Source: Lepidodermella squamata
Taxonomy: Eukaryota; Animalia; Gastrotricha
Assembly (NCBI GenBank): GCA_047495785.1
Contig: JBLDXI010000019.1
Span: 868,001 to 932,000 of the forward strand
Reading direction: 5' to 3'
Length of the DNA: 64,000 nucleotides
Below the pieces are notes generated by a model that was not told the origin of the DNA, ran no database searches, and saw nothing but the letters and a program-made list of their open reading frames with translations. Made by a program: the position numbers and the translations under genes. Shown piece by piece: positions 3,001-45,356 of the stretch (positions are counted from its first letter, which is position 1; every line of letters begins with the position of its first letter).

Positions 3001-6000
3001 CTAGTTCCCGAGAATTTGTTGACATTATCGAATCGGGGAATGTTACTGCTGCACGTTAACAGACCAGGGCAAGCTGGCGGGGGAGTCCATTGCCCTTCAA
3101 TTGTGCAGTAGCTAGCTGTTGGTCCGAAAGCAGGTCCGTTGCTGCACTGGTAATTAGCGGTGAAGCCGTTGCCACTTCTCTGAGCAGCTGCTGCGGTAAT
3201 TACAGACGGGGTAGGGACATCAGCACAATCAGGGGCTAAATTTGAGAGAAATTATACAAATTAAATTTTTAAATAAATCTAAAAATTCACCCTAGATCAA
3301 AATATTTTTTAAATATTAAGAAATAAAAAAGTAAAAACTTTTAAGAAAATTTGAATAACAAATTCATCAGTTAAAAATTAAAAAAATTAAATTGAAAGAA
3401 AATTCAGGCTATTAATTTCGGGACAATTTTGCAAAAGGACGCGAATTTACAACCCAATCCATGAGCTAAGGTAGCTTCTCTTTTTCATCGAATTTTTTAA
3501 ATTTCCGAATTAATTTCAAGCTAAATTGAAACTGCAGCATAAATTATAAAAAGAATAGTTACTTGAAATCGAAGCTCTAAGCAACGGATTTCCTTGCGTT
3601 GAGACAACAGAACTCGAGACACTGACGACCCCACCGTTCCAGATTATATCCGTATGAGTGAGAGGCAACGCAAAAACTTGAACTGCATCCGCCGTAAGCG
3701 CTACCACACCTGTCGCCTCATCCGCTGATTCATAGTGAACACCGACGAAATCCCCAGGTAGGACCAAAATTCGAGCTACAGGTGGGACAATAAAGTCCTG
3801 TTCATCAGTTGATGATGCGTTGAACAGGTTCACGCCGACTAGGCGGAACGCAGCTGAACTGATTTGTCGCCAAACTGCGAGGTAAACCGGCATTTTCGTG
3901 GCAAAAGGCCTTAATCGCCAGCGCCATAGAAAACCGCCACCCTGACAGCCGGAAAAGGTGAGCCGCGGAAATAAATAGGCGTAAGATCGAACGGTTCGAA
4001 TGACAGAACTTGTTGATAAAATTCCGGCAGAACAAGACTCGCCAATTTGACATTTTATCGTATCAGGGGTCGTCCAATGACCTTCCGGTAGACAAGTTGT
4101 CGCGAAAGAGACATTTCTATTCACAGGTTCGAAACCGCCCCGGCATGTGTACGCAGCTGTTTGATTGACAACCCCGCTTAAAACCGTAGTTCTGGTGTTC
4201 GGAATTAAAGGAGGCGGGGTTGGGCAAGATGGAGTTGAAGTGGTTGCTTTCAGAGCCGGAACTGCGTACCAGGTTTTAAGATCCAGCGAAACCGATGGGT
4301 TGAAAAAATCGCCGGGGCCCCCGAGTTTGTAACCGAAAGCTGTTGTCGAGACATAAGCATTCCAAAGCTGATTTTCCGCATATTGCCCTCGATTTTGTTT
4401 TGTATTTGCCGTGATAATCGCCTCGTCAACTGCAAATTTTCAAAAAATTAAATGATAAGTTTCAACTCAGTAGAACTTACAGGGTGACATGTAGAAAAAG
4501 CCAAGGACATCTCGCTGTTGGAAAGCTATGAACTGCCCAGGTTGGAGAATTATCGAGTTCATGCCGACTGATTTCGGCGTAGCTTTCGTCAAATTCACCA
4601 GTAGATAGCTATCTGAGGCTAACGGTCGCCATACAGCCAGGAAAACCGACGCATTTCTACTTGGATCAGCGTAGGCCGCGAAATAGTCCCATTGGGTGAT
4701 GACCCCACTACAGCCGAACGGGTTGCTCGGGAAAATGTAGAAGCCAATAGGTAATACGCTGTAAGACTGGTCAGATCGCGGATTGCCGCCGAAAGATGCG
4801 CCACAGCTACTCGGCGGTAGAGCGTACGCACATTGCGGCGGGGCTGGAGACCAGTTATTGCCCGATTGGCAGGTAATGGTAGCGGATCCTGTGATTCTTG
4901 TACCCCGAACGCAGGTGTAGGTAACCGTAGCTCCTGATGGAAGCGATTGGTTGTAGTTCACAACATTAGCCTCAGCGAACTCCACAAATGGAACAGAGGG
5001 ACAAAACGGTGATCTGACTACACTCGCACTTATCGGGGTAGTAGGGTAACCCCTGATAAGCGGGCCGTTAAATTCAAGCGTTTTCGCCGGTAAAATCTGA
5101 CTGGATTTGTAACGAGCGATGTAGACGTCGTGCACGTTCAATTTGTTGTTTTTCGTCGTGTCATTTGTTACCGTTCCCATGGCGACGACTCGGGTGGCAA
5201 CTTGGTCGCTTTCGTAGAAAAATCCGATAAAATCACCGCGTTGAACGACAATTTGTTGCCTGGGATCGGTGAAGTTGTATATCCGAAAGCCGCGGCCGTC
5301 GTAAGGAACGATGAAATTAGCCCCGGCCAACTGGAATTGGTTGCTACGATTCGTTGGTCTCAGAACAGCGAGATAAAACGGTGCCTCGTCAACCCTAACG
5401 AAAGCTAAAACAACGACGAAAATTGAAAGAATAAGAAAAATTCTCAAAATTACTAGTCCAAGATCTCAGCACTCCAGAGCAAGGGAAGGTCCAATTTGGG
5501 TAGAAAACAGCGAATGAGCCGCCTTCTTGAAGTTGGTAAGAACGGTCAACGTTTTGAACCCCAGCCGAGCATGACGCGATCGGATCTGTCGTGGTCGAAG
5601 ATGTTGAAGTCGACGTGATTGCAACATTCGGCAGGCTTGTCGTAGTTTGACCCGGTGAAGTTGTAGTAGCTTGAGTTGTCGTAGTATCAACCTGCCGACC
5701 CGGAGTGATTGCACCGCTAGTTGTAGTTGTCACAAAATAAGTCCAAGTTGTAGAATCAGTGATCGATCCAGGTGTTGGTGGGGTGGTCCGTCTTGTCCGG
5801 TCTGGCATGGGAGTTGTAACCGCATCACCAGCTACTAACATCAACGCCGGGTTTCGAAGTACGTAAGACTGAAATTCTCCGATAAATGAGTACATCTGGC
5901 CCGGTTTCACTGGAAAATTGACCATGCCATACAGCCCAATCACAGTTAGATATAACCGGTCCACAATGCCCAAATTGACCTCATCAGCCCCAGCGTAGGG

Positions 6001-9000
6001 AATTACGTACAGCTCGAAGGGTGTCTTGTAATCAGAATAATGAACTCCAAGGCAGTCGGTAGGTTGGACGTCGAATTGAAATGCGTCAGGAATGTCGTAA
6101 ATGACGATACCCGTGTTATTTGCCCAAATTTTGTGAGTCCCAATTAGCATCATAGTCGGGCCCATTTGCCGCCAAACACTCAGATAGACAGTATGAGGCG
6201 CGGTGAGGCTGTAAAAAACCCACTGCTTCGTTTTGCCCGAGCAACCGACGGTTAAATTCATGAAAATATGCATGAATGTCGAGTAGCTGTAGCCAGTATA
6301 ACGAGGGACGTTCGCGAAATCTGGCATGAAACTGCCGCAGGCAATCGCTCGGCCACAAGCCGGAGGTTCAGACCACCTCGCGTCAAGGCCACATTGAATT
6401 GAGGGGGACCCGTAAATCGTACCCGGGCACTGGTAATTCGCGAAAAGGCCGTTGTTACTGATCTGAGCCGCGCCAGCATTTCTCACGACTGGGGTGGGTG
6501 TTAACGAGCAATCAGGGGATGCAACACTGGCGGACATCAAAGGTCGACCCAAAATTATACTCGCGTTGATTACGACGAATGAATTCGCCCCAATCGTGAT
6601 ATCATTCCCATCAGCGTAGTACAGCCGATTTCCAGACCAGGTTATGTTGCTATGAGATACCGGCATCGTGTAAGCTATTGAAGCTTTGTCAACGACAAGG
6701 CCTACAACTGACGATTCTGTGGAGACGTAGGAGTAATGGAATCCGATAAAATCCCCAGTTCGTACGAGAATTCGTTGCTTCGGTGGGATAATAACAAATT
6801 GATCGCCAGGCGATTTCGGGGTGAACTGGTTCACGCCGACCAGCCTTGCCCCTTGCGTCTGGCCGGGTAACGGCCGCCAAACTGCCATGAAAATAGTCCG
6901 ATCGGCGTATTGCGGCTGGATGCGCCATCTCCACAGATAGCCACCACCATTACAAGTCGAGAATTTAATATCCGGAAATAAGTAAGTCCAAGTCGCTGTG
7001 TAGAGTACACCAGGGCCGGATGATAACGACCCGGCTGAGCAGGTTTCAGCGATCCGACATGTAACAGGCGATGGAGACGACCATTGGCCGTTTCCGAGGC
7101 AAGTCACGGTAATAGGGGTTGATGAATTCGAAAGCTCAAACCCTGCTCGGCAGCGGAATGTAACCACTTGCCCGGCAGCTGCCGTGGTCGAACCAGCTGG
7201 TACAGCGTTTTCGATAACAGGTAGCGGTCCTAAGCATGCAGGTTGGCCCAGGGTTGCTCTCAAAGCCGGAAAAGCCAGTTTCGGGTAATAAGTCAGTAAG
7301 TCAATTGGTAATGAATAAAAGCCAGGGCCATTTTCCATTTGGTAACCAAATAAATTTGTAGACACGGCTGCGTCCCAGAATACGGTCGGATTCTGAGCCA
7401 GATTAACCGAGACAATAGGATTGTCATCTAGAAGCAAAAAAAGCAGATAAAATTCATTTATTCTAAAATTTTAGTAGCTAACAGGGTGACATGTGATGAA
7501 ATCCCATAACATCGCCTCTCCTAAAAGGAATAAGCTCTCCAGGCCGCAAAATTACAGTATTCAAACCAAGTCGCTTAGGAACAGCCTTTGTGAAATTGAC
7601 CCAGAGATACCGGTCTCCATTTCGGCGCCAAATCGATAGGTAAACTGAAGCGTTTCCTGTCGTGTTGAAAAACGATGCGTGATAATCCCATCTTGTGATA
7701 ACTCCATCGCAATTGATCGGATTGTTGACGAATATGTAGACACCGTTCGGAACCGGGCGATAGACTCCGAATTGCCTTGGATCATCTCCCAAGGCTTGGC
7801 ATGATCCTAGTTGGTAGTTATAGCCGCAGACGGGCAGTGGCGAGGACCAACTACCGCTTGGTTGGCAGGTTAAAATCCCCGAAGTTCCGTCAACAAATGT
7901 CGACCCGTTCGTGCAGTTGTACCGAATTGAACTGCCGACAGTTACAGTGCCGCCTGACCTGAAACTCGCCACGGCTAGGTCGACCTCAGGAACTGAGACG
8001 CAAACAGGGCGCCTTTCGACCTGGCCGCTGATCGGGGACAATCGGTACCGCCGCAACACCCCGCCGAAGTCGAGAGTTTGTTCCTGATCTACCGGTATCA
8101 ACTCCCGTTTGCTATAACCTGCGATGAAAACGTCCGTTAAATCAGTTCCGGCGTAGAAAGGCGATTCGATGATTGGCCCGTGAAAACTGAGAGCCACCAC
8201 TTCGGTTGAAGTTTCACTGCTTTCGTAGAAGTAGCCGATAATGTCACCAGCGCGAACTGTGATTTGCTCCTCCGGTTTAACCGCGTAAGTTCGACGACCG
8301 ATGCCTTCATAAGGTACGATCATATTCGCGCCGACCAGGTAAAATTTTCCTGTATCTTCCGACCGTCTCCACACAGCCATGTAAAACGGAGCCTCGGCAG
8401 CTCGAACATACACTAAAAAATATTGAATAAATCTAAATTATTTTTAATTAATGAAAAATTACTCGTCCAAGACCGAACGATCCCAGAACAAGTTATGGTC
8501 ATGTTCGGAAATACTACTGCGATCGAGCCACCCTCAATTTGCGGGTAGTAGCTTTGAACGTCTACCCCGGGATTGCAGAACGGACTCTGAGGCGTCGTTG
8601 TGGTTGGGAATGTTTGCGTTGATGGGAAAGCAGACCATGGGGCGAGAGTGGTGTCAACCTGGCGCCCGGGTGTTGGAAATGGTGACCAGCTAGTCGAAGT
8701 CCGCGATGTTGACCATGGCGCCCAATTCGACCAGCTTGTCGACGTGGTAAAACCTGAACCACCCCATGAAGTAGTGACAGGAGCAGCAGTTGTAGTGATT
8801 GAATCATCGGCTGGAACTTCGATTATTCGAGTATCTTAAAGAAAAATGCATGGCTACGCTAGATCTTCATCAATATTGCGAGCAAATTACTTGAAACACA
8901 GCCATTATCGAATGTGGTTGTTATTTCGTCAATAGCAATGTTGCTGTAAGGGGTAAGAACGCTCGTAGCTTCGAAAACCAGGACGAAGGACTGAAAATAC

Positions 9001-12042: not shown

Positions 12043-12545
12043 GGTGATTTAAAGAAGGAGCTGAGCTCAAAAAGGAGCTGAGCTCAATGGAGCTGAGCGC
12101 TAACGGAGCTGAGCTCCCTGAAAACCGCGCGCGGTCAAGTCAAAGGCCAAGTTCATGGAACAATGTCGGTTTTAATACCAAAATATAGATCGTTCAATTC
12201 TCTATCGATCGAATGTAGATTTCTCGATGGAAAAAATCAATCAGAAAAAAGTTTTACGCCCATGCTAGATTGCGTATTTAAGTGTGCATATCGCTTGAGA
12301 GTGCGCGCAAATGGCATTAATTTATTTACCAACTTAACTTTTTCCTGTTTAGTTTTTCGAGCGACAAACCTATATTCAGTCGATAGAGAATTGAACTATC
12401 TATATTTTGGTATTAAAACCGACATTGTTCCATGAACTTGGCCTTTGACTTGACCGCGCGCGGTTTTCAGGGAGCTCAGCTCCGTTAGCGCTCAGCTCCA
12501 TTGAGCTCAGCTCCTTTTTGAGCTCAGCTCCTTCTTTAAATCACC
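12043..12545. mobile_element. Palindromic MITE / foldback element (503 bp)
   Basis: GGTGATTTAAAG... at 12043 and its reverse complement ending at 12545. Arms are near-perfect for ~165 bp and degenerate out to ~215 bp, with four subterminal GGAGCTGAGC repeats per arm. No clear TSD. Confidence 0.9.
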
Positions 12546-17023: not shown

Positions 17024-20000
17024 ATGGCTTACAATATGCCGATGGCTGGTGGTTTCGCCTCTATGCTCAAGGAGGGCACTCAGGTTTGTAAATTATTCTT
17101 TAAAGCCACCTTGAAATTGACGAATATTGTTTTTCTCAGTCGTTCAAAGGAATGGACGAGGCGGTGTTCCGCAACATCGAGGCCTGTAAGGAGCTGGCTA
17201 AGAGCGTGCGCTCGTGCTTCGGCCCGAACGGTCGCAACAAGATGGTGATCAACCACCTCGAAAAGCTGTTCGTCACCAACGACGCTGCGACCATTGTCAA
17301 GGAAATCGAAGTGCAACACCCGGCGGCGAAAATCGCCGTCATGGCCAGCCACCAGCAGGAGGAGGAGTGCGGCGACGCGACCAATCTCGTTCTCATTCTC
17401 GTCGGCGCCCTGCTCGAACAGGCCGAAGAACTCCTGCGCATGGGTCTGTCCGTGGCTGAAATCACTTCCGGCTACGAGCGTGCCAGCAAGAAGGCGCTCG
17501 AAATCCTGCCAACGCTCAGCTGCGGTAAAATCGAAGATTTGCGCACCGAGCAGGAGGTGATCAAGGCCCTCTGCTCAGCCGTTGCCTCGAAGCAGTACGG
17601 CAATGAATTCACCCTGGCCAGGCTGATTGCTCAAGCGTGTATCTCCGTGTTGCCTGAGGATAAAATCCGTTTCAACGTCGATTCCGTCCGCGTGTGCAAG
17701 GTCCTCGGCTCGAGCCTGGCCCAGTCGCAAATCGTCAACGGCATGGTGTTCAAGCGCCTCGTTGAAAGCGACATCATTAAGGTGGAAGACGCGAAAGTCG
17801 CCGTTTTCGCCTGCGCCCTCGACGTCATGCAGACCGAGACGAAAGGCACCGTCCTGCTGCAGAACGCCCAGGAACTCATGTCGTTCAGCAAGGGCGAGGA
17901 GAACGTTGTCGAGAAGCAGATCAAGGCGATTGCCGATGCCGGCATTCGCGTCATTGTTACCGGTGGCAAGATCGGCGATCTTGCGCTTCACTTCTGCAAT
18001 CATCATCATCTGATGACCGTCCGCGTCATGTCCAAGTTCGACCTGCGCCGCATTGCCAAATTGGTGGGCGCCACCGCTCTTCAGCGTATGCAGGTCCCGA
18101 CCCCCGAAGAGACTGGCCACTGCAGCTCGATCTACCAGGTGAGCAAAATCTTCAAAAAATTGCTAATTATTTGCTAAATTTCCCATATTTTTCAGGACGA
18201 AATCGGTGAAAACCACGTTATTGTCTTCAAGCAAAACCAGAAGGACTCCAACGTTGCGACCATTGTCCTGCGCGGTGCCACCGAAAACTCGATGGACGAC
18301 ATGGAGCGTGCCGTCGATGATGGTGTCAACACGTACAAGACCCTGACTAAGGACAACCGCATCCTGGCCGGCGCCGGTGCTGTCGAGGTCGAACTCGCCC
18401 GTCAGTTGACGGAATTCGGCCGCAAGCAGCCTGGTCTTGACCAGTATGCTATTAAGAAGTTCGCCGAGGCTCTTGAGGATGTGCCGAAGACTCTGGCTGA
18501 TAACTGCGGCGTCAAGTCGATGGAACTCATGGCTGCTCTTCACGCTGCCCACCAGAAGGGCGAGAAGCACGCTGGCTTCGACATTGAGGTAACATTATTT
18601 TCCCTAGCATTTTTACCCGGCTGATTTTGGGCCAGGTTTAGTTTTGAAATTTAGGCGCTAGCACTAAATTTCGATAAAGTATTGAGATACCTTAGCAGCT
18701 TTCGCAGATTAAAATGCTCGAAACAGGCCTATATTTAGATGGATCGGACGAGTCGCGTTTAAAACACTCATTCACATGAAAAATGGCAACATTCCATGTG
18801 AATTTCATGTGAATGGAATGTGAATTTCCATGTGAATGGGATCTGGCCTTCGTTAAAACAGCGAGAGAAGATTATGGATAAGGAAAGGAAAGGACATGAG
18901 CTAGTTTATGAATGAGTATGGCCGGTAAATTATCAGGTCCACCCGAATCCTGCTCCTTTGATCTAGGCATGAAAGGTAATACAGAATCAGAGCATATTTT
19001 GATGAAAGTCGTTAATTTTAGAAAATTGCTATGCCGAAATATACGATTTAGAATTGTAGGAAAGAGAAATCGTGTTTTCAATATGTCCGCTTTTTCGAAT
19101 TATCGGAAAATGTCCCTTCATTCGATGCTTGTAGCTGCTTCAACAGCAAAGAAGCTAATGTACGGCCTAGGTACCCCTATACTCGTCCCGGCGTGCAGTG
19201 AACTCGCTGGAGCTCGCCAACTGACCTGGCTTGCAATTGCTTGCTAGCCTGGAACACGTACCCAGTTTTTGACATGTGCAAGTACAATGTGGCCAGGTAC
19301 ACCCGACTGTTACAGCGCGTCCAACCGTCATCGCCACTATGCACGCGCATCAGTCTGGCAGGATGCGGAGGCTCCTTGTTAACCCTCCGTGCTTCAGCGT
19401 ACACGGCAGTTGTGTCTTCAGGTCTCCAGTTTTACTAGATGGCTAAGTACGTAGTAAGTCACGTTGAGTAGAGTGTTCACGAAGTTAGTAGCCCTAAACC
19501 CACTGAACATGCCCTGTATGACTCGAATCTGTCGTCATTTGAGTATAGCCCGTACTAGTTCATACAGGCTTCCAACGTCCAAGTCACTGCCTCGAGCCAG
19601 TCTGATGAGCCACATCTTTTCTGGACGGCAACAATTTTCAGAGCATGGAAGATAGAGCGTTGCGCCTCCGACAAGTGCTATAATCGGCGTAGTCGAGCAT
19701 CAAAGACCCATCTGGGCAGTGCTCAGCCCCTATCCAGGATGAGCACCTAGGGTTAGAAATTCGTTGATAATATCAGGAGTGGAATTGTTCAGCAAATCGG
19801 GACTGTCATTTTCGAGCTCCAAAGTAACGCAGTCGAGAGTGTCGGATCGCTTATTCTTCGGTTGATGGTCACTCTTAACAGCCTCTGTGCTGCGGCGTCT
19901 AGTAGCGCCGGTTTCCGTCAGTTCGATACCTGTCTTAGTGGGCTCGTTTGGGCTCGCGCGATCGGACGTTACGCCAGCATTGGACACAATCTGCGGCGAC

Positions 20001-21120
20001 GGCGTATATTTCATGTCTCCTCGAAATACGATAACTTGGATTTAGCAATTTTTGCGACTGGCAAATTCATCGACTCCAATTCATTCTTCCTGAGTTGATG
20101 CTTCCCCGTACTTGATCTTCTAATTCGCGAGTGCTCTTCTTTGAGGATGGAAATATGCTCAGTTCTTCGTGCAGACCGGATAATATCTAACTTTTGAAGT
20201 TCGAAATCCAGCAACAATCAAAACAATCAAGAATCACAAAAAGAAAGTTACAATTTTGATAGCAACAAGAGAACATGAATAGGTGATTCAGATGCCTTTT
20301 CGGGCATTTCGCTCAGCGATTTCTACTCGAACCGTCTCTGACAGGCGGTCAAGATCGGCTCACTTTTCGGCCCTCTGTCTCACGGTCAGCTCGGTGATGG
20401 CTTTTTGTATCTCCTTCCCCTCATTCAATCATGAAATCGATACCTACGATAAAGAGCCCAAGGCTAAACCTAGGATGCCATTAATCTAAACAAGGTCGCC
20501 TAAGCCGTCGAAGCTTCAAAGTCCGTGAATAAATCCATAATAGATGTGCGCGTTTATTCTTCCGACGTTTCGGTCATTTTCTATGACTATCTTTAGGGAA
20601 AATTAGTTGAGAAATTAGATCAAATTTGGAGATATTTTTTAAGGTGGATGTGAATAAATATTTAAGCGTGAAAAAGTTAGGTCTCAATTAATTTAATGAA
20701 TATACGATTATCCTTCTAACGAAACCTAAAATCAAATGAAAAAGAAAACACTCCAAAAATGAAAAAAAATATTTTCTTTTCTGATATTCAAAAATATATG
20801 AAAAATGAGTGGATAAAGGAGCGATATTTTTGAGGTGGACGTTTTTCAAGTGTGTCGTTGTTTTAATTAGGCTGGCACTGCCGTGACCAAGGACGCCGTT
20901 GCGTCTGGCATTTACGATCTTTATCTGACCAAGCACTGGGCGATCAAGTTCGCCACCCACGCCGCGAACACGATCCTGTGCGTCGACCAGGTACGTTGTT
21001 GTCACCGGGTGACCCTTTTGACCACGTGTTAACCTGCGCCCTGATTTCTAGATTATCATGGCGAAACCGGCCGGCGGCCCGAAGCCGCGCGATGGCAAGG
21101 GCTGGGACAACGACGACTAG
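17024..21120 (+). CDS. CCT8: T-complex protein 1 subunit theta; exons 17024-17083, 17140-18138, 18196-18588, 20871-20990, 21052-21120
   Basis: GPNGRNKMVINHLEKLFVTNDAATI, TETKGTVLL, SKFDLRR, ERAVDDGVNTYK and C-terminus VDQIIMAKPAGGPKPR...WDNDD*. All junctions are GT-AG and in frame. Confidence 0.97.
18835..19110 (-). mobile_element. Decayed non-LTR retrotransposon (CR1/L2/Jockey-type) ORF2 fragment
   Basis: With one frameshift it reads SGGPDNLPAILIHKLAHVLSFP/LSIIFSRCFNEGQIP, the pre-RT S.GPD.IP..L...A..L..PL..IF......G..P motif of LINE ORF2. Confidence 0.75.
19115..19750 (-). pseudogene. Endogenous viral element: RdRp fragment of a toti-like (Ghabrivirales) dsRNA virus
   Basis: Motif A MLDYADY/(Q)H at 19700-19680. 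Motif B RVIQGMFSGFRATNFVNTLLNVTYY at ~19525-19450. Motif C RVHSGDDGW with GDD at 19335-19327. Motif D GYVFQASKQ and motif E GELQRV...GYLGRTLASL follow. Order and spacing are correct; several frameshifts and stops. Confidence 0.88.
19750..20602 (-). mobile_element. 5' fragment of a Penelope-like element (hammerhead-bearing pLTR plus decayed ORF N-terminus)
   Basis: Hammerhead-like motif and AATAAA at 20553-20602, followed by decayed coding (GKEIQKAITELTVRQRAEK*ADLD...; DLLNNSTPDIINEFLTLG) resembling PLE ORF N-terminal regions. No RT or GIY-YIG sequence is visible. Confidence 0.55.
20557..20602 (-). ncRNA. Degenerate minimal type-I hammerhead ribozyme
   Basis: TTTTCC-CTAAAGA-T-AGTCAT-AGAAA-ATGACC-GAAA-CGTC-GGAAGA: helix I TTTTCC/GGAAGA, stem II GTCAT/ATGAC, GAAA box and GUC site. 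The CUGANGA box carries a G-to-A change. Confidence 0.65.
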
Positions 21121-24600: not shown

Positions 24601-27600
24601 ATTATACACTATTATTAATAACATCAATACGGTCATGCTGTTGTTGTTTATCGAGTTACAGCAGCGGCTTTTGATGAACTAACCAACTAACGTGTTTTGT
24701 CGACGCGAGAGATAGCCTTAGAAACATGCCGAGCGTTAGTTGTAACTATCCCAATATTTATGTTCCAGACGAAAACGAAGAGGTGCTATGCGATGCGCTA
24801 ACTCGATGGATTAATTGGCACCTGGAATCGGTAAAATAAATTACTCAATGAATTTGGCGAAATTATCGTGATTTTTTTCTAGCATAATTTATTACCCATC
24901 CCGGACTTGGTCGAAGGAGTGAAAGACGGCCGGGCTCTTCTGCAACTTGTCGAATGCTTGTCTGGTCAACCGCTAACGCCGGAACGCGGCCAAACGCGGA
25001 TACACTGTGTTGGCAATGTAAATAAACTGCTGGACTTTCTTCGCCTTCAATCTACGGTTTGCCTTGAAATTTGCCTTGAGATTTTTATTAATTTTTGTTC
25101 ATTTTTAGTTAAAATTATCCAACATCGTTCCGGAAGATATTATCGACGGAAACGTTAAAATTATATTATCCCTGGTGTGGAATATTGCTCTGTATTATCA
25201 GGTGAGTTATTTTAAGGTGGATTTTTTTAATTTTAATCCAATTTTTTTAGATCATTCGTGTTCTCGTTTTGGACGGCTATGTAAGCCGCGATTGTCAATT
25301 ATCAGCCTGTGAACAGGCGATATTATCATGGTGCCAGCAATGTACAGAGAATTATTCAACAGTCGATATTACAAATCTAACATCGTCGTGGCGCGACGGC
25401 CTAGCGCTGAACGCCGTTTTACACGCGCATTTATCGGCAACGTTCGACTTTAGCCGCGTTTTGCGCATGCAACCGGCCGAACGGGTTGCCAACGCGTTGG
25501 AACTCGCTAACCGGCATTTAGGCATTCGGCCGATTTTCGGCCCCGAGGCTATTGCTTCAACCTCGAATGCCGGTCTGGATAAGAAGACACTGCTGCTTTA
25601 CCTCAGCATGTTATTCGAACGGCTGCCCCGCCTGCCGTCAGCTGGCGGCCTCATCCACCGGTCTGACTCGCATAGCCCGACTGATATACAATCGTCGGGC
25701 TACGAGAAGCAGTCTATGACTTCGTCCATGACCGATAACGACGGCGGGGCGAGTGGCGGGTTAGGCTCGAGTATGGGCGGGCCGTCGATTTCGTTCGGCG
25801 AATCGATTGAAAGCATGTTATCGTGGCTCGCAGTCGCTGAGGGCCAACTCACCCTCGCCGAGTCGGAACCCCTGGGCGAGGGGACCCCCGCCCTGGTCGA
25901 ACAACTGGCCCAACACGAAGAACTCATGGGCGATATGGCGAAACAGCAAACCACAGTCGGACAGTTACTATTAGACGGGTCTTTACCCCCAACTTCCGAC
26001 TCGGACCAGCAACAGCACGAAGTCCAACAGCGCCAAGTTGCGTTATTAAGGCAGCGCTGGGAGGATTTAAGGACTCGAGTCATCGCGAGGTTAGGTGCTA
26101 TCCAAGACAGATTAAGAGTTGTCCGAAAATCTGATCTAGACCGAATTTCCCACGCGTTGCCTCAGTTGGAAAACGCGATTCGAGACCAACTCGACTCGGC
26201 GAATGGCCGCAATGTTTTAGCTGTTGTTAACTCGCTGGAAGGCCTTAATACCCATGTTAACCTTATTCACAACTTCGAGGCATCGGTTGAGGGTTATCTA
26301 AGGACAACCGAGGCTGTTCACGCGAATTTAATCGCTTGTGAAGAATCGGAGGAATTCGGCGAGGATGGGCCGCAATTACTGCAAAAAGCTGTGTCGTTCG
26401 GTGAACGACTCGCGAATTTGCAGCGGCAACTGGAGCAACAGCGTGATATCGTCGACCGGGCCCTTCGCGCCTGGCGGTTTTTCGCCGAGGAAGAGGGCTT
26501 ATTCAACGCGTGGTTGGCTGAAAAAGAGGCGATAATGGAACGAATGGTTGCAACGAAACTGTCCGGCTCGACTACAACCGGGTCTTCATCTGGGTCCGGG
26601 TCTCCGTCCCCGTTTGCTCAAACCGTGATCAGGCAGGTGCGACTGCTGAAATCTATCGAGTTGGAAATGGATAGCCAAGTTCGGCGGTTCGATTCGTTGA
26701 ATGACCATGCCCAGTTGGTGGTCAGTTCCCTAGGGGGTAACACGGCGGTTCTAGCCACCGTATCCGGGCAACTCGAAGCTATGCAACAACGGTGGGAAGC
26801 GCTAGTCCTGGCTATGGAGACTCACTCTCAGGTTTTAGCCGCGACTGGGGTGGATTTAAGCGAGGCCTTACTACCCTCACCCAGCGATAGCCAAGAAATG
26901 CAGAGATCAGTCGGGGGTGGAGGGTCGAGTGGGGGTAGCAGCACCCAGGGCGGTGCCGGGTTGGTGCCAAGTGGGTCCGGAAATCTGGCGAGTAGTGGCA
27001 ATGCCGCTTCCATCAGCCCGGCCAGTTCTTGCCTCAGCGAATTCGAATTCGCGGCTCGACAACTCATCGAATGGCTCGAACGGGCTGAGAGTGGGGTAGG
27101 GCTAATGGCGGTCGGTGACACCCGTCACCCAATGTCAACCGAGGAGCAGTTATCTCTTCTCGCCGAGATGCGGAATGAATTAGCAGGTCAAGTCAGCCAG
27201 TTAGACTCTGTTAAACAACTCGGAGGTCGGCTGGTTCAAGACCTGGAACAAGCCGGCGAGTCGGGGGGTGACGTGACCGAGGCTATCCGATCCCTAGAAA
27301 CCCGCCTCGAACGCCTCTCCCAAACCGCTAATGCCTCAGAACGGCGGTTATTAGTCGGAATTGATATCAGGGTGATTCAAGAGGAGGTCTCTTCGTTGAA
27401 TGAAGTTTTGGCTGGGTATGAAAAATTCCTGAAGTCGATCAGTAACGACCGGCCAACCGACCCGGGTATGACGTCATGCCTCATCGATCAATGCCGCGTT
27501 AAGCTAAAATTGATGTCATCCTATGGCGATCGCATCGAAAGCCTCGAACATCGATCTTCGGCCCTTCAAGCGCCGGAAGACTCGATGTTGGAAGAGGTGA

Positions 27601-30600
27601 ATCATCTTCACCAGGAGGTTGATCGATTCGTGGGGAATTGGAACGGAGTTAGGGCGCAAATCGATGAAAGACTGAAAATTTTAAAGACAATAGCCGCTCA
27701 ACGGCCGCCGAAATCAGTCGTGGAGTCGATTAATGCCCTATCTAAATGGCTCGCTGAGGTCGAAGGAGTGCTGCAAAGCGAGAGAATTGAGGCGAATGAG
27801 GTCAGCGCGCTGGAGGATCAGCATAACCAACTTCGCGAGTTGGGTAACGCTGTTCGAGAATACGAGGATTATTTAAGCCGGGTTGAAGCCGGGGTTCGAG
27901 CTAACGCGGCGTCTGCTGGTATCGGCTCGCAAGAACAGGCTAATCTACAAACCTCAGTCACTCGGCTAGTCGAGCAATACGCCACTGTTCGAGAAACTAT
28001 CGACGCTCATGGGACTCAGTTGCAGCGGCTGATCGCGGATTTGACTGAGTTACAGTCAAACTGCGATGGTTTGAACACCTGGTTAGACGAAATGAGGTCC
28101 TACATCACGGAAACTCGACCCTCAGTTGGCGATCTTGAAACTCTCCGCCAACAGGTTAACGAATGGAGTGACGCTGAGCGCGATGTTAGTACCCTCGAAC
28201 AGACTTTGTCGGTTATTCAAAGTTTAACTAATCGCCTACTGGCCAGTGCGAATAGCCCGGCTTTTGCTGATAAACTCGTCAAGCAATTATCGTCACTTCA
28301 ATCGCGATTTTCTGACACAGCGGGTGAAACTCGTGGCTTGGGCAGCCGCCTTAAAACTAGCCTAGCGACTGTTGAGCAGTTGTGGTCTGACTGCGAGCGT
28401 TTGACAAATTGGCTTGAACAGCGAATTGCCAGCCTTGAATCGGATAAAGTCAGCGAAACTGGTCTGCCGAGTGGTCCGATTTCGGATGAAGCCCAGCTGC
28501 AAGAACGGTTTCAACAGGCTCAGGAGGGTCGTCGGGAATTCGAAGAGCAGAGCTCGGAATACGCGTCGTTGCAGCAAACCTACGACCAGTTAGTGCCATC
28601 AGGCGCGTCGACCACTGACACGCCGTTAAACCGCCGTTTACAGAAATTAAACAACGTCTGGGACCAGTTAGGTGGCATGATTGCCGAGCGACTTGCAGTT
28701 CTACAACGGGCCCAAACTGAGGTCCATTCGGTTAAAGAGCTGGCTAAGCAGGAAGATGATTGGCTGAATGATGTCGAACATCGGCTGACGATTTGCCGCC
28801 GGCCGTTGACGGACGCTGAGGATATCAGTGAGCAGAGTTACGAGCTGGAAAATATCTGGCAGCGCGACTCAGCCGCTCATATTTCGACTGAATTACGGAC
28901 CGTTTCAGACCGGCTGATTTCAGCTGAAATTTGCGCGTCTCTTGTCTCGCAAGTTCGGGAGAAGGCGGATAAGCGGCGCGATGAGGTTAGCGAGAAGGTG
29001 ACTCAAGAACTCGCTAGACTCGAGGCGATGCTGCAGCAGAGCCAGGAAATTGAGCGAACCCTACTTGGGGTTATGCAGTGGCTATGCGATGCGGATGAGT
29101 TGCTGCAAAGCCGTCTCGAGGCCGATATTCTGGCCGCTGATGTCCCGCAAGAATTCGAGGCGTTGCAAAATGAGTTCGGCGAGCACGAGCGAGTTGTTAA
29201 CCGGCTCGAATCGATCAAAGACGGGCTGTCGAGCGAAGGCCGTGAGCTAGCGGCTGCTCGTCTCAAGCAGCAAATGGATTTGATAAGGGAGCGATTCGCG
29301 GCTGTTAACCACAAATTCGCCAAGTTTCAAAGACCGGCTGATTTCGAGACGAAACTCGACCGGGTTCGGCGTGTTCTCGACGATGTTGAGGAGCGGTTGA
29401 ATTTACTTGAGATTCGCGAGGCTGATGTCGATACGTTGAGCTCGCAACTCGACCACTGTTTACGCTTCTATCGAACCCTAAGTGAGGCGAAACCTGAGGT
29501 TGAGTACGTGCTAAGAACTGGCCGGCAGGTTGTTGAGAAGCGCCAAGTCGACTACCCCGAGAAGCTATCAGCCACGCTAGACACGATAAAGCACCGATTC
29601 AACCAGCAGGGTAGCCAAGTGACGCAGTCGAAAGGCCTGTTGGAGCGGGCGGTGAAATTGTCGAAAAAGTTGACGAAAGACGCGAATGTTTTGAAAGATT
29701 TGTACGCGAAAGTGGACGCGGCTGTTGCTGACGTCCAGCAGAACCAGGACGACGCCCCGGCTGGTCAACCGGCCATGTCCGTTGACGACGGTTTGCGGCT
29801 GCTCGAAGTTCTCGACGGCCAGTTACGGCGGCGGCAGCAAACGTTGCGATCTGCTGAGGACTGTATGGCTCAACTCACTGATCTAGCGAGTGTTTGTTGC
29901 TCAGGGGGCGAGTTGGCGCAGGGTGCGATGAAGGACTGGTTAACGCTACGCTATGGCGCGTTGCCTGTTCGCATGGAGCGCGCGAATAGCGAGTTGAATG
30001 ATGCTATCAGCCGTTTACGTGAGCAGCAACAGCGCATTCAATCGATACAGGCCGATATTCAAACCGCCATGGAGTCGATAGGTTCGGCGTTGTTTCGAGC
30101 CGAGGCGCAACTGCGACGCTGGACGACCACCGGGGAATTGACGGCGGCGGATCGCCAGAAGCTACAGGTTTGTGTTTATTATTAAGGTGGTTGTTGATAC
30201 TATTTTTCGCGCTTCATTTGCCCCTCTCATCAGTGTATAACCAAGTTTCGCGATATATTTAACTGTAAATAGCATGCCATTACCCGGGCCTATAATCGAT
30301 CGCAAACACGCGATATGCATATATACACTTATATTATAATTCAATTCGACCGCAGTGATAACGATAGTCTATGTGAAGAGAGGTGGCGCCGCTGCTCAAG
30401 GGGAAGGGGAAAAAATAGCCGATGGTAGTAGGGAGGCTGCTCTGTCTTTCCATTGCCTTGTAAATATAATCCGCCTGCGTATAACTGGACACGTAGTTTT
30501 TATCTTGATTATATTTTCTTGCATTATTTATTATGAAAAAAAGCTCGCGAATAATGCTAATTTTTCTCGTTATTACATTGTAATCACGCTATTGTGAAAA

Positions 30601-33600
30601 ATTATTGTCGGTTTTTCTTCCTCATCTGCGAACAATAGACGTTGCAAGGCGAACTCGAAACAACTGTTGCTGGTACTCTGTTCTCAAGTGTTCGCTCGCT
30701 GGCGTCCCAACTCGGCGACATCGAGCCGCGGCTGCGCTCTGTTGTCGACGCGCAAATTGCCGACTTTTCGACAAAACTCGGCGACGTGCAAACTCGAATT
30801 CAGGTGAGACATTTAACATTTTTTATTAGTCTATTTTTGGGGGAATTATTGAAAAATTGCTACCATTCAGATTTGCTGGTTCTATTTTCGTTGATAGGTG
30901 CAATATAATATTGTTTATGGCATTTTTATGGCATTTTTACGGTAATCGTAGACTTGCCTGAGAATATTTTATCGCACTCTTTCGAGCTCATAAAAATGGT
31001 ACATATTTTATTTCCGGGATAAGTACCTCGTCCGAAAATTTGGCAGTAATTGATTTTCTCCTGCTGAGATCGAAATTGCGATCTCTAGATTCGAGCTTTA
31101 ATTATTAAATATTTTTCTATATTATTGCATTCATTTTTTAGATGGCTCTAGCCCAATCGGAAGCAAACGAGTTGGAAAAAAGTTCTATTAAGGAGGCTGT
31201 TTCTACCTCCGCCGATGATGTTATCCTCGCCCTTCAGTCATGCCTCGAAAAAGTTCAATCACTGCATCAGCCCGATCTCACGACAACACTGTCATCCGAA
31301 GCCGCTGATCAACTAGTCCAGGCGTATACAAGCGAATTCGAGGCAACTGACGAGGCTGTTCGAGCGTGTATAGCTCGAATCGGAGTTTGGCTCGAGGAAA
31401 CCGCGGAAGGCGAAGAGGCGGAACGAGTCGCTGGAATGCTGGACGATCTCAAAAAGCAGGCGCAAACCCTGGTCGATCATCACGCCTCAGTCACCCGGCT
31501 GAGTCGCGGTGTTTGCGATTTGCGAGAAATGGAACTACTTCGAGATCAACTATCCGAACGACTGGCTCGAGTTTTCGACGCGGCCGACGGAATTTCAGGC
31601 ACATTGGCCGGGGTCACCCAGGAAGACCTGGACGTTGTTCAAACCGAGGCTGGAGATTTGCAGACTATCCTAAACAGGGTAGCCGCCTCGGGTTTCCAAC
31701 CAGACTCCAGCGCTGTTCGGTTATTAAGGCGGTGCGATGATTTATTGTCACTGAGTACCTCAGGCCTGTTGCTTCAATCCCAGCAGTCTGTCACGAATTC
31801 GACGATTGGAGTCGGGAAGGATGACGCAATGTTCTTATCCGCCCTTTCAGTTCAAACTAACTCGAGATCTATTGTCTTCGACACGCCCCATGGCGGTAGT
31901 ACTGATCTAGTCGGGGAGGAAGGTACCCTCTCGTTATCAATGGCTAACGAAGTCTCGGCCTTCAACACAACGGTCGAAGATGTCAGTCACCGAATTTTGA
32001 CAATTCAGCGCAGTTTGGCGAAGGCTGATCACGTCGCCACTGTCGTACTACTCGAGAACGAATTCGTTAACACGTGTAACAGCCAGCTGCAAACAGTCGA
32101 GGCGCAATGCAGTGAAGTTGTCGAAAATTGCCTGCAAACTGGCGAGGCTAATCACTTGGAAACTGGCGAGAAGCTCAAGTCCTCCGTCGATCTGTTACGC
32201 CTGCAGACGTCTCGGTTAAGGCGGTCGTTTGACGAGCGGCGGACGGATATTCAGCGCGTCGACTCGCTGGAGGACCGCTTTGAGGCGGCTCTTCGCGACA
32301 TGGACGCGATTTTGTCGCGCCGCCAGAAGTCGCCGAAGCCGCAGTTGTTCGCCAACTCGCCGTCGCTGTTCGGCCTCGCGTTGTACGGTCTTGAGGCCGA
32401 GCTTTCGGCCTGTTTAGGCGAGTGCAATCTTTCGGAGTCTTCAGAAGACTCGCCGCTCGCCTCAAGAGCGTCGCAACTGCGAGCGAAAATCGCGGCTAAT
32501 CTCGACCGGCTGAAGTCGACGATCGCTGATACGCCGAAATCGCTCGACAAGGCTGACATTGTCAAATGCCTGCATGAAGGCGAGGAGTTCGGCGACAATG
32601 AGTGGTACCAAAGCGCGGGTGTTGTGCTGAAATGGGCCCAGTTATCGCCGATTGCGAATGACGAAATTCAACAAATCCACGATATCTCGATCGCGTTAGC
32701 CGACGAACGCGCTGCCTTTGCGAAACAGGTCGATGCCTGGGTCGATCGCATTCTGCCTGAAGTTCTCGAGGGCGGTGTTGTTGATATCAGCTCAATTCTC
32801 GCTGAAATTGAGCGGAAAAAGCGGCGGTTATCCATCGTCGAAGACCCGGCTAAGGCGGAGGAGTTGCGGCAAAAACTGAGCAAATTACGCCAGGCTGTTG
32901 TCACATCGGCCGGGCAAGACCTATGCCGCTGGTTGGGCGTGATTCGCGAGCTGGTCACCGCCGGCCGGGTTCGGATCGGCGACTCGGATCAGGTCGAATC
33001 TGAGATGGATAAGCTCACGAAACTTGGCGCGGATTTCGAGGAGAAGCAGGGTGTTCTGAAGCAGATCATCGACGACGCAACCAACGACGAAATTGCCATT
33101 CAAAGTGAGTGGTAGCCTTAATTATTAATGACTATATAAATTAGCCTGGGGGTGGTGTGGTTGATGGGGCGGGGACAAAACCCACCAGAAAAAGGCCTAC
33201 TCAATGCACTTGAGGCGTGAAGTTTTTCGGTTCTTGATTATTGTTTTTTCTGCCGTGCTTTATTACGAGCAATATGACTAGCTTTGAGCGGAAATTCTGG
33301 CAATTTCGCACCTAGCCTTCGTTTCCGTACTTTGTTTCCGGGCGGCCCGCCGTCCGATTTGACGCCGCTGTATTAAATACCGCGACAAAATGCGATTTTT
33401 CCCTCGCATTCTGGCGACCAATAGTTGCGACCTTTTTGAAATGTGGACATTATATCAGATTTCAGTGTATAGCCGTTCCGCTTCCCATAAAACCATTTCG
33501 CTCGCTACGCGGGGGTGAAAATTAGCCGATTTATTGAGCTGGATTATACATTTTAATGCATAGCGTGAAATACTATTAGAGAAGCTTGATTTTCGGGCCA

Positions 33601-36600
33601 ATTAATTTATCGTTTCTTGGTTTCTGAGTAAACATATCATGTGACGCTTTTCCACCGCATATAATGGTCTCATCTACTTTGTTTGACCGCATCGCGCTCG
33701 TTATTTCGATTATTGGCGCCCATCGCTACAAATAATTGCCCTTCCTCCTTGAATAAGTTGCGCGCGCGTGATCGCCTAATCCAATATGACCAGTGGACTT
33801 TATTAAAGGGACCAAAATCTGCTCGATGTACTACTATCTTTTCAACGCCTCAAATCCGCCATTGTCTCGGCTTATTATGATGATTGTTTTTGTTGTACTA
33901 TATTGGCCCATAATTTATATATTATTATTATAAAATGCCACAAGAGACCACTGCACCAAAACGCCTTTTGTCTCCTCTATTTCGCGCCATCGCGTCTTAC
34001 AGCAAAAAATGTGTCAAGAATAATAACCCGCAAATCGCGTCCTAAGAAGCAATTTATAAGGAACTTGTCAGTTTTTCGTCTTCCCCTGTCAATTTTCGCT
34101 TTTTTCTAATGTTATTTATTATCATATTTTTTTATCGCCGTAAGAAAATCAGCCAATGTATAGAATCCCCCGGGTACCATATATTTTGCGCGTATTTTTT
34201 CTACATTTTCGATTTGCTACTGCGGACGTGTGCGAGTCCTGTATATACATGGTCTAATTCACCGTCTGAGGAGATGAAGCAGTAGGGGCAAAAAAATTCT
34301 CGCGAGAATTGGAATTGTTTTATACATTGTCGTTGCATGCCACCACACCCAGTCCAATCATTTGCGCCGGACTGCTCTATTATTTTGCGACGAAATAATC
34401 GCGCGCCACATCCTTGTAGCAGTAGTCAAGTTGTTGAAAATCAAAATCGAAAATGCGCGGAATTATGGCCAGAGCGACAGACACATCTCGGCCGCTCGAG
34501 GCCGTGTCCGCGCGTGTATTTATAGATTACGAGCGCGATGTAGTAATTATTATTGATATAGACATGCACTACTAATGCTACATTTTTAGCCACTCCCAGC
34601 CAGCTTAATAACTTGCGCGCGAAACATGAACTGAGGCGAGATATTTGTAATTACAAAGCGTTCGATCTTTTTTTATTGCATTTAATTAATATATGTAGAT
34701 GGAACTTTGTTTTCAAACAAATAATGTCGTGCTATCACAGTAGAATAGCATGAAACCGGCCTCGGCCAGAAATCATCGTCATCATCGTCATCATTATAGG
34801 CACCCTCCGCCGCCGAGTAGTAGAAGCTGTTTTCATAACTTTTTAATGCAAATATAAAATAATTTTTGTACTGGAAATGTCTTTTCTTCGAGGGTTCGGT
34901 ATGCCGAATCTAAGTAACTGAATAATTTTCCGCAAATAACCTATAAATTGATTAATCGTTTTTTCAGTGAATGACCTCAAAAAACAGTGGGACTCTGCTG
35001 TAGTGGCTGTTGAGGAGCGGAAAACTCAATTGGCCGGAATTTTATCGATCGGTACCGAAATCAACGACCAGGCGGAAAAATTGGATGGCCTAACGGGTCG
35101 ATTACTCGAGTCTACGCAGGAAGCGAAGAGCAAAACGTTAGAAGCTGCTGGGCTCATGACGCCGCCGTCTTCGACAAAGCCGGCCGAATCCGTGGCGCCA
35201 TCAACGCCGTCTTCGGTGCGGCCGAGCCAGGGCGAGTCTGCCTCAACGTTATCAGCCGCGATTTCAACCCCGTCGATGCCATCGCCGTCGTTATCGTCCC
35301 ATGCCGGTTCTCAGGCTGCTGCGTCGGAGATTGAAGCTTCGAAAGATTCGGTGCAAACTGCTGCTAATTTAGCGGATAAGCTGACTGAAAAAGGCAATGA
35401 AGCTGAGGCGTTGGCAAAAACAACTGGTGATGACTCATCGATGGTCCGAGACCGCATCGACAAATCGATCAGAAAATTCAGTACTCTCGTTAACCGACGG
35501 TAAGTCGAATTTTATGGTGAAATTTTATTAAAAAAAATACAAATTAGTTTTAAATTAAAATTTTGAAATATAATTCAATTTTCGAATTTTTTTAAATATT
35601 TTTTACGTCCGTTTTTAGGGCAACAATTATTTTTTCCTGTAAATTCTCAATTTATTTAATCAATTTTTTGTTTCTCTGAATTTTTTTGTAATTTTTTCAA
35701 TTATTTCTTAGCCGGTCAGAATAGGGTACTATTTTTTGTATTTAGCCTCAGGCGGCACGCGTTTAATTTGCCCGACCACTACTACAAGATCCAGTGACTG
35801 TTGACATTTTTTGTCGATCAAAAATGATAGTAGTGGAAAAACGTCTTAACTAAATCAGTTGCACTTGACCACGCTACTAGTGCTGGGCACTAGATCTAAT
35901 CGACGCGCGTTAAGATAATTACATTTTTAAAGAGCAGCCTGGACATGCTGCTATTAAGTATAAAGTAATAATAGCGTTTTATAGGGTGGTCTAATATATG
36001 TTTGTCCAGCTTTTATTTCTGGCCACCAAATATGCCGTATGTTTACTCTGAAGAGTTGTGGCTTTCCTTGCGAGCCTACAACAATTTATCCGCCTTAAGA
36101 TGTTGTTTTGATGCTATATATGGTCCTTTTTCTTTGTTGTAGCTTCTCTTTTATCTGGCTGCTGTGTATCAGATATATTTTTTACGTTTTAAGCTGTTTA
36201 CTATTATTGGCGTAAATAACTGCTACTACCTTGCTTTAAAAAATAATGCGATCGAGTTACTCAATCGATTCGGCGAGTGAAATCGATGATTTTGAGGACA
36301 TAGAAGAAGATGACCTAACCGATATTGACGATTACGGTTATGATGACAGGTTGAGTCTCGCGTCGATCGCCTCGTCGGCCGGCAAAAAAACGCTCGACGA
36401 ACAGCTGAAGGACACGTCCGACTGGCTGTCCGCCGCCGAATCGCGCCTTACCACCGTAAACCGCACGTTCGACGCGCAACTCAGCGCCATTTCACCGTCT
36501 GCCATCGTTCCTGTCGAAGAACTCGGCCAACAACTCTCGGTAAGATTGTAATAAATTGTTTTATCATTATTATGACACAGCGAATAAAAGCCAGACGCGC

Positions 36601-43454: not shown

Positions 43455-44306
43455 AATAAAACATTTCTTCGTTCATTTCTCTCTTTTCTTTCTCAAGGTG
43501 CTAAAAAAATAACTGGAAAATCGACAGTCAGAATGGGTTTTTTTCTTGTATATAAAACCGCCCTAATCTGGCGCAATCCTTCCATAAAGATTTTCTTGTT
43601 GATTGTTATATTCTACCTTAATTATATAATAAATTGTTGTATAAAGAAAATAACCGAGGCGCTGAGCGAAATTATTTACATTGAAAACACCTGCTTAACC
43701 TTATAAATAAATTTATTTATTTAATTCGAGGAGTATAGATGCGCCTTAAAAATGCCGTTTTTTTCGTTTTCATGTCGCCAAAAAAAATCATGCATCATCA
43801 AAATCGCACCCTGATTTGTTGCTGTTTATTGTTTCCTTCGCGTTTTCAATCACTGTTGAGGAGCAGGCAGTGTTCTTTTTTTCTGAGCAATACACGGTTT
43901 TTCGATGACGTGTGTTCTTATTGCGAGTTGAATGCAAAAAAAATGAAATGTCGCCAATTTTTCTGCTCTTATTCTCTAACTGTATCTCCGTACACCGCGA
44001 TTCTGACTCGCCAATTTTTCTCTTTTCTTCTGCGTTTTTGTACGAATTGTTATAATATTATCAAATAATATTATATATTAGCTATTTATGAAAATTGAGC
44101 GACGGCGAGTCTTGAACGTGTAAATAACTGATGAGATATAATAAGAGAAAATAAATCGATCTGTGAGTTCTAAAACCTGAGTTATTTCTTTTTCGGCAAG
44201 AGATTGTGTAACGCGTTACCTGTTGCGCAACAGTGCGTTAAGGTGGATTGGTTTCAGCCGAGTGCGAACCCGTATCCTGACAATGAGTTTTCAGTCCAGC
44301 TGAAAG

Positions 44307-45356
44307 ATGAAATTTATCAAAATTTCGCACTCTGTCATATTCATTTTGATGTACAGCCTATGTGCTGTGCTCGTTTTAATCATTTTCTGGCTGATCAGCG
44401 GCAATTATACCCAGGCTGAAGATGATCAAAATTACCCCATCGCTGCGCAGAAAAACACCGAAATACCTCGATTCACCCGGCGGAGGAACGTGATAGTCTA
44501 CCTGATGAAGGATGCTCTAATGCACCGCGGTCTTTTCACTGTTTCCCTTAACAAATTATTCAAGAATTTCAACTTACGGCGGCGCTATAAGGTCGTAGTA
44601 TTCCACGAGAAGTCCCTAGATTTACCTGCCCTGAAAGCCGATATAGCTAACACGACGGTTTTCTCGAAGAATAATTTGTTAGAGGAGCTTGTCGAATTTG
44701 TTGAAATTTCATTCAAATTTCCAGACCATTTCAACCCGGAAAAGGAAGATATTTCTTCCTTTGTCTACAGCCATGCCTTCCCCAGTTATCATAGCATGAT
44801 TCGATTTTGGTTTATTCAGGTTTTTCAAGAGCCAGTTATGCGTGACGTCGACTACGCCTGGAGGTTAGACTACGACAGCTTGCTAACGAACCCGATCGAC
44901 TACGACATTTTCAAGCTTATGGCCCAGAAAGGAGCGATTTACGGCTACCGAATATCTGATAAAGATTCGCTCGAAGTCACCAGAAATTTGAAGGAATTCA
45001 CTGAACATTTCATTGAGAAAAATAAGGACATTATTTACCCATTTGCGAAGGATCAAGTTTGGAATAAGACCATGTCATCCTATATGCCGACTTATTACAA
45101 TAACTTCGAGATATTTCACGTACCAACATTTCGCAATCACCCTGGGATTACTCATTTTACGAATGAAATCGACCGATCTCATGGCATTTATAAATTTCGC
45201 TGGGGCGATGCTCCGTTGCGATATCTCTCGATTAATCTGTTTTTCGACGTCAAAGAACGGGCGCATCAATTCTGCGATATTCCTTACTACCACCAAAGAC
45301 TTTATAAGAAGACTTGCAAACCTCCAAGAATGTTCAAGAATTTTTCGAAAAATTAG
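44307..45356 (+). CDS. GT15 family (KRE2/MNT1-like) alpha-1,2-mannosyltransferase, type II membrane protein, intronless
   Basis: N-terminal TM; YHSMIRFW, DYAWRLDYDS, YGY, YYNNFEI and GIYKFRWGDAPLR are Glyco_transf_15 motifs. Confidence 0.88.
   Translation: MKFIKISHSVIFILMYSLCAVLVLIIFWLISGNYTQAEDDQNYPIAAQKNTEIPRFTRRRNVIVYLMKDALMHRGLFTVSLNKLFKNFNLRRRYKVVVFHEKSLDLPALKADIANTTVFSKNNLLEELVEFVEISFKFPDHFNPEKEDISSFVYSHAFPSYHSMIRFWFIQVFQEPVMRDVDYAWRLDYDSLLTNPIDYDIFKLMAQKGAIYGYRISDKDSLEVTRNLKEFTEHFIEKNKDIIYPFAKDQVWNKTMSSYMPTYYNNFEIFHVPTFRNHPGITHFTNEIDRSHGIYKFRWGDAPLRYLSINLFFDVKERAHQFCDIPYYHQRLYKKTCKPPRMFKNFSKN

Follow-up and report, generated by a model that had tools for sequence, protein, structure and literature searches.

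The third intron of an animal CCT8 gene, located in the 64 kb stretch of DNA analysed here (the window), contains a degraded fragment that is, judged by its sequence, a Ghabrivirales-type RdRp. The fragment occupies positions 19127–19700 of the minus strand (GC 52%), comprises the palm motifs A–E of a toti-like dsRNA virus, likely one related to Spiciviridae, and is directly followed on its 3' side by what is likely a piece of a non-LTR retrotransposon. We hold with moderate confidence that the viral piece is a decayed, inherited DNA copy of the RdRp that was likely made by a LINE reverse transcriptase (RT) leaving its own RNA for the viral plus-strand RNA. An earlier note on this DNA had proposed an endogenised viral RdRp in a CCT8 intron; the LINE-like fragment adjoining it and the half sequencing depth of the insert are observations that go beyond that note.

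The RdRp motifs that the earlier note had read on the minus strand are all present in the order it gave, spread over three frames, and both sequence comparisons that it had proposed, a profile search with HMMER and RdRP_4 and a frameshift-aware alignment, bear out its assignment to Ghabrivirales. One frame of the viral piece, with stops read as X, matches the Pfam family RdRP_4 (PF02123) at profile positions 395–460 with 29.4 bits (E 5.3e-7), above the gathering threshold of 22 bits, and a second frame gives a weak match at positions 357–381, which include motif B (E 0.032). In the frameshift-aware alignment, 43 of 44 relatives score 163–255 at 35–44% identity, compared with a mean of 38 and a maximum of 49 for 30 shuffles aligned with the best relative. 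Palm motifs A, B, C, D and E keep their order and spacing and are colinear over ~179 aligned residues, with motif tallies made over 55 references. The unbroken 83-residue ORF covering motifs C–E yielded 13 matches at E up to 0.001 in a search of 1.84 billion representatives, of which 10 are RdRP_4 proteins; the other three (P0125, P0129 and P0131) are not RdRps and were dropped. When the relatives were searched back on the window, they aligned over ~80 residues at 38–45% identity and, where a separate segment was reported, over motif B (45–72% across 23–31 residues, or 35% in one longer segment). Since the relatives had been gathered with the motif C–E piece only, motif B being outside the query, the motif-B match constitutes independent evidence. 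A profile of eight related RdRps, scored with the null2 correction off, reached 101 bits on 19680–19111 and 38 bits on the motif-B frame, and nothing else in a six-frame reading of the window scored above 4.0 bits; the short motif-A frame by itself was not significant in this profile (−2 bits). A word-based protein search with an X read-through of the viral piece returned nothing among 714 candidates, a PDB sequence search with the piece gave no match, and two 15-residue matches from a viral-contig scan with the motif C–E ORF were judged spurious.

The viral piece amounts to only ~190 codons and includes no ORF1. Its reading frame is broken by three frameshifts (near 19680, near 19520–19560, and between 19350 and 19455) and two stops (19555–19557 and 19177–19179), and it is ~15 codons longer than its relatives between motifs B and C. 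Most of the span 19115–19750 given in the earlier note stands, with two corrections at its ends: the viral sequence likely ends at 19127, so that the last bases belong to the neighbouring repeat, and firm similarity starts at 19700, leaving 19701–19750 (minus strand) as a possible weak upstream extension which 2 of the 44 relatives reach (to 19748). From two stops in ~575 nt, the change since insertion can be put at ~8% (range 1–30%), which would explain part of the long branch and of the identity gap described below. These breaks argue against a protein role, and the piece is likely without function as a protein.

The host gene, CCT8 (TCP1-theta), is on the plus strand at 17024–21120 and is intact, with five exons (17024–17083, 17140–18138, 18196–18588, 20871–20990 and 21052–21120) that encode 546 amino acids. 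Its introns measure 56, 57, 2282 and 61 nt, and it is the exceptional third one (18589–20870, GT..AG) that carries the viral piece, antisense to the gene, which confirms the intronic location proposed earlier. The splice joints of CCT8 are found in contigs of runs X2, X3 and X5 with intron 3 removed exactly; the host gene is thus correctly spliced despite the insert, and its transcription would yield antisense viral RNA as excised intron. A CCT8 of 80% identity on a 33.5 kb metagenome contig (P0002) likewise passes into an intron at this codon, so intron 3 is likely older than the insert. The best named matches of the CCT8 protein are only 61–67% identical, and a metagenome scan for CCT8 gave no close relative, the best being 64% identical. 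The genes near CCT8 (dystrophin, Sushi-repeat and FERRY-subunit) identify the host as an animal.

At least three pieces of repeats are patched together in intron 3. The ~850 nt that lie 5' of the viral piece (19751–20603) are partly repetitive and were assigned to no family; the segments from 19936 to at least 20007 and at 20549–20603 recur elsewhere in the genome. The frames of the flanks have no Pfam family, Rfam gave no match, and none was found in PDB, plasmids or viral contigs. Comparison of the flanks with 14 related viral loci, ORF1 included, gave no match beyond one stretch of 25% identity (E 0.019), the remainder of the window gave none, its gypsy element included, and an Atlas query with 20014–20217 returned nothing. 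A Penelope-like reading of the upstream stretch, made by eye, had no computed support and was set aside, as was an inverted repeat with TTAA ends (18759/20866, 72%), which is likely due to chance, one of its arms being the 3' splice region.

Several other features of the window deserve mention in their own right. A series of long minus-strand ORFs at 126–8835, each with scattered Sushi domains, is probably one very large extracellular protein, and two 17-nt tandem arrays with mutually reverse-complementary units (12055–12116 and 12472–12533) likely mark the two termini of a MITE-like element of 480 nt. The dystrophin/utrophin-like gene at 25251–41000 (plus strand; CH, spectrin, WW, EF-hand and ZZ domains) has one open stretch of 1644 codons and is unusually intron-poor. 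Tandem long ORFs at 44304–45356 and 45521–46798 (plus strand) contain Glyco_transf_15 domains (PF01793, alpha-1,2-mannosyltransferase; E 1.8e-24 and 3.6e-31); this family is mainly fungal, and the two ORFs may have been acquired horizontally by the animal. An RT-RNaseH-integrase ORF of 1065 codons in gypsy order lies at 56600–59797 (plus strand), 37 kb from the insert; as it is uninterrupted, it points to a young LTR element, and it has no similarity to the intron insert.

The sequence that directly follows the viral piece on its 3' side (18690–19126, minus strand, the lower boundary being approximate) is likely an ORF2 fragment of a non-LTR retrotransposon from a multicopy family, including the linker, motif 0 and the start of the RT domain. 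In one minus-strand frame at ~18690–19126 it contains, in order, 'EKA..L', 'GPD' and 'YRPVS', of which the first and third are presumably motifs of non-LTR ORF2 proteins. Motif 0 (PGPDG) has been described as general to non-LTR elements (PMC4117753). The ordered set of three motifs occurs once in the 64 kb window and in none of 300 shuffles, in a test that was chosen after seeing the sequence. The fragment has no match in Pfam or PDB and falls between the endonuclease and RT domains; in the Atlas, a 'Lian-aa1 retrotransposon protein' cluster ranked third (0.92, low recognition), which serves as a lead only. At the junction the GC content changes from 52% on the viral side to 38% in the LINE-like fragment. 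Within the window the fragment has no other copy; among the run X1 contigs, other copies are ~85–90% identical and leave at 19126 and 18720, and one contig compared with 18825–19111 differs by 35 substitutions and 11 gaps. Two contigs depart from the window at 19126 into non-viral letters in which the LINE-like frame, read by eye, is carried on. Those letters were not found beyond the viral piece, where matches are at chance level; a complete LINE into which the virus was merely inserted is therefore not the explanation. A 70-nt patch of short repeats and palindromes (18755–18824) belongs to this copy in particular; in a different copy the site is taken by 36 other letters, with a LINE-type 'V.PIFK..G' on the minus strand (by eye).

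This layout looks like an RNA/LINE chimera, which we do not offer as proof of a single event of target-primed reverse transcription (TPRT). We favour one LINE-driven event because the layout matches RNA/LINE chimeras, an RT of a non-LTR element is known to jump templates, and the viral clade has a route to germ cells. A foreign RNA joined in the same orientation to a 5'-truncated LINE is what template switching or RNA ligation is known to yield (10.1101/2025.02.02.635956), the R2 RT is reported to jump between templates via microhomology (PMC4117753), and SsTV2, the nearest named relative of the viral piece, is reported to be transmitted vertically in its tapeworm host, through eggs (PMC7305300), so that a route to germ cells exists for the clade. 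Under the favoured reading, a vertically transmitted virus would have brought plus-strand RNA into a germ-line cell, where a LINE RT engaged in TPRT would have copied the LINE RNA back to 19126 and then jumped to the viral RNA (or read through a ligated RNA), giving 5'-virus/LINE-3'. The product would have inserted, in antisense orientation to CCT8, into a short intron that was already there, where splicing could survive it, on one of two diverged haplotypes, and later decay would have introduced the three frameshifts and two stops and removed the 3' half of the LINE. Against the LINE jump stand the absence of two hallmarks of a single TPRT event, the ~850 nt on the 5' side that are unexplained, and the fact that no profile library confirms the LINE. 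For Aedes, moreover, the usual partners of endogenous viral elements (EVEs) are described as LTR elements, not LINEs (10.1101/127498).

The strongest competitor, clearly the less probable of the two and still a serious one, is that virus and LINE arrived separately: a viral cDNA, made by any cellular RT, would have been patched in, a 5'-truncated LINE would have inserted within it or next to it, and a later deletion, taking away the 3' half of the LINE and whatever viral sequence lay beyond, would have joined them. Separate insertions joined by deletion retain this weight because neither the LINE 3' end nor a poly(A) nor a target-site duplication is present. The fragment stops near the start of the RT domain, which means that a deletion occurred in any case; no poly(A) or repeat tail is present, the sole A-run of the intron being at 20762; and the best candidates for a target-site duplication are 5–7 nt long, at chance level, and not at the boundaries. 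The patchwork make-up of the intron agrees with such a history, and the shared orientation of the two pieces has a 1 in 2 chance of arising at random. Separate arrival, however, needs an extra event, no viral sequence resumes past the LINE piece, and the layout is exactly that of known RNA/LINE chimeras.

As to the source virus, the first named matches were Emileo virus, Mute swan feces associated toti-like virus 2, Totiviridae sp. and a hypothetical protein encoded on a sandfly contig of 96 kb; another 37 proteins came from a profile search, including Schistocephalus solidus toti-like virus 2 (SsTV2), Culex vishnui subgroup totivirus, Atrato virus and several labelled 'totivirus'. The sandfly protein (P0122, GAB0089599.1; 635 amino acids, Sergentomyia squamirostris) belongs to this clade of RdRP_4 proteins and is likely a further endogenous element, one whose frame is open. 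Of the five named relatives whose taxonomy was examined, SsTV2 (Spicivirus kyu) and Culex vishnui subgroup totivirus (Spicivirus shichi) are species of Spicivirus (Spiciviridae, Alphatotivirineae); NCBI lists two others as unclassified Orthototiviridae and the last as unclassified Riboviria. Identity of the viral piece is highest to SsTV2 (P0136; 42% over 169 columns); it is 35–42% to 43 members of the clade, within which the median is 54%, 33–39% to nine rows of a sister group, most of which have a Pro/Ala-rich first ORF, and 23–26% to two outgroup rows. The phylogeny suggested in the earlier note, made with 14 viral loci added and an outgroup of only 2–3 unnamed rows, groups the piece with the animal-associated clade with support of 0.92 and 0.91 in FastTree and, on a long branch, at 92/97 in IQ-TREE (23 of 56 rows) (the fragments P0124 and P0132 were left out of the trees, and P0167 does not have the region). 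Its exact position stays less firm, as the AU test rejects neither placement with the sister clade with the Pro/Ala-rich ORF1 (p 0.35) nor placement outside both clades (p 0.34). The piece thus likely belongs to Spiciviridae, and the broader 'toti/chryso/megabirna-like' label of the earlier note, correct as to Ghabrivirales, can be narrowed, with the support of these data, to animal-associated toti-like viruses whose two ICTV-classified members (among the five examined) are Spicivirus species. The possibly undescribed lineage that the earlier note suspected is, at the species level, a fair description: among the sequences reached by our searches the source virus species appears undescribed, with decay accounting for part of the gap between its best identity and the clade median. 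Spiciviridae genomes are described as non-segmented, with a PArP ORF1 and an RdRp ORF2 (10.64898/2026.10.09.758028).

The source virus might instead have come from a symbiont or food organism (a fungus or protist), its RNA or cDNA then passing to the germ line, a proposal that fits either insertion route and that we consider unlikely. Its appeal is that the placement of the viral piece is not statistically fixed and that toti-like viruses in animal samples can be mycoviruses, as discussed for SfToLV1 (PMC10636211). It is opposed by the best tree, which groups the piece with viruses of animal samples, and by the origin of the relatives themselves. Every near relative that bears a name was obtained from an animal sample: mosquitoes or other insects (to judge by the virus names), a tapeworm, bird faeces and the sandfly genome contig.

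Evidence that the insert is part of the genome comes from two runs. Run X1 yields a single 2309-nt contig over 18563–20871 that has 0 differences from the window and runs hundreds of bases past the viral part on either side; it enters exon 3 by 26 nt and exon 4 by 1 nt, the link to the exons being made by overlaps of 30 nt with the contigs next to it. Run X2, which belongs to a different study and year and may be RNA, gives identical pieces of 82–88 nt inside the intron (19711–19798 and 19920–20001), with a thin cover that leaves no bin empty between 18588 and 20501. These data, along with the stops and frameshifts, support the earlier claim of endogenisation: the viral piece is endogenous and contiguous with host DNA, and a live virus is excluded because of the two stops and three frameshifts. 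In run X1 the depth is 49 for the intron contig and 92–105 for the exon contigs, a ratio of 0.50, contig depth being a crude measure. At CCT8 intron 2 (window 18078–18216), the same run contains two allelic contigs, one identical to the window with a depth of 48.6, the other with a depth of 59.5 and differing by 12 substitutions and 4 gaps in less than 140 nt, as expected of a very polymorphic, hybrid or asexual lineage; 16 of the 17 exon differences checked among those listed are silent. Since the intron contig has half the exon depth, matching that of the window-type intron 2 allele, it is quite probable that the insert sits on one of two diverged haplotypes; the other intron 3 allele was not seen among the contigs.

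The depth data also bear on the proposal that a virus-LINE cassette was built elsewhere, for example at a repeat-dense or piRNA-producing locus, and that DNA duplication or repair afterwards brought a 2.2 kb block into the intron. Mixed truncated repeats and outer ends devoid of retrotransposition hallmarks would agree with such an origin, as would the gathering of mosquito EVEs in loci of this kind described for Aedes (10.1101/127498); nonetheless, the viral core (19284–19631) is present in run X1 as a single contig with a depth of exactly 49 and has no second copy at ≥85% identity, and we regard the cassette as improbable. An assembly artefact or contaminant, with viral sequence mis-joined into the intron, the possibility that the earlier note had itself raised, is largely refuted and highly improbable: run X1 may itself be the sample behind the assembled window and runs X3 and X5 have no cover over intron 3 (by itself not evidence either way), but dsRNA viruses pass through no DNA stage, stops and frameshifts of this kind would be absent from a live genome, and the unbroken short-read contig is joined by identical pieces from a second study.

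If the favoured single event is taken together with its wider implications, namely a virus/LINE chimera in a little-studied invertebrate that would record, as a direct fossil, a non-LTR retrotransposon jumping onto RNA of a cytoplasmic dsRNA virus from an unsampled spicivirus-like lineage, present on one haplotype within the intron of a housekeeping gene, with antisense intron RNA that could feed a small-RNA defence, the composite is tentative, falling somewhat short of an even chance. The viral piece itself extends the host record of spicivirus-like dsRNA viruses to an animal group that has no annotated close genome, and its source virus, at most 42% similar to any sequence retrieved, got into the germ line. 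With the junction, ideas on how non-retroviral RNA is turned into DNA in invertebrates can be sharply tested, LTR elements being the agents usually suspected there. Should the insert be confined to one haplotype, its counterpart would supply the empty site from which to date the event and to read its insertion signature.

Elements of this class are themselves well known. Toti-like endogenous elements, frameshifted and heterozygous, are reported from planthoppers and widely from arthropods (PMC10636211), and non-retroviral EVEs of all genome types have been described, with LINE hallmarks in mammals and not in insects (PMC2987831). In the literature listings searched, no Spiciviridae-type element fused to a LINE or located within CCT8 was encountered. 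Like known toti-like EVEs, which are RdRp or capsid fragments, usually frameshifted and variable or heterozygous among individuals, the present element is a broken RdRp fragment; unlike them, it is intronic, antisense, adjoins a LINE-like fragment, bears no sign of domestication, and resides in an invertebrate with no annotated close relative. With Spicivirus and the unclassified Emileo virus, Atrato virus and Mute swan feces associated toti-like virus 2 it shares RdRp motifs A–E in the same form, and it differs from that clade in its long branch, the extra codons between motifs B and C, and the reduction to an RdRp fragment. Tripartite chimeric insertions of the RNA/LINE type reportedly occur also in Magnaporthe. 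As in the LTR-associated EVEs described from Aedes (10.1101/127498), a retroelement RT would have made integrated DNA from a non-retroviral RNA, with a neighbouring element on the same strand, although the neighbour here is non-LTR and not Ty3/gypsy or Bel-Pao. In mammalian EVEs made by L1 (PMC2987831), a retroelement RT likewise turns non-retroviral RNA into DNA, whereas here poly(A) and target-site duplication are absent and the viral piece is joined directly to LINE sequence. The closest structural parallel is with the U6/L1, U3/L1 and tRNA/L1 chimeras described in 10.1101/2025.02.02.635956, which have the same arrangement of a foreign RNA copy at the 5' side, a 5'-truncated LINE at the 3' side, a shared orientation and a direct junction; in contrast to these, the passenger here is a viral RNA and the LINE 3' end is missing along with the terminal hallmarks. 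The added value of this case comes from a virus not sampled before, a host that has been little studied, a likely restriction to one haplotype, and the junction with a LINE.
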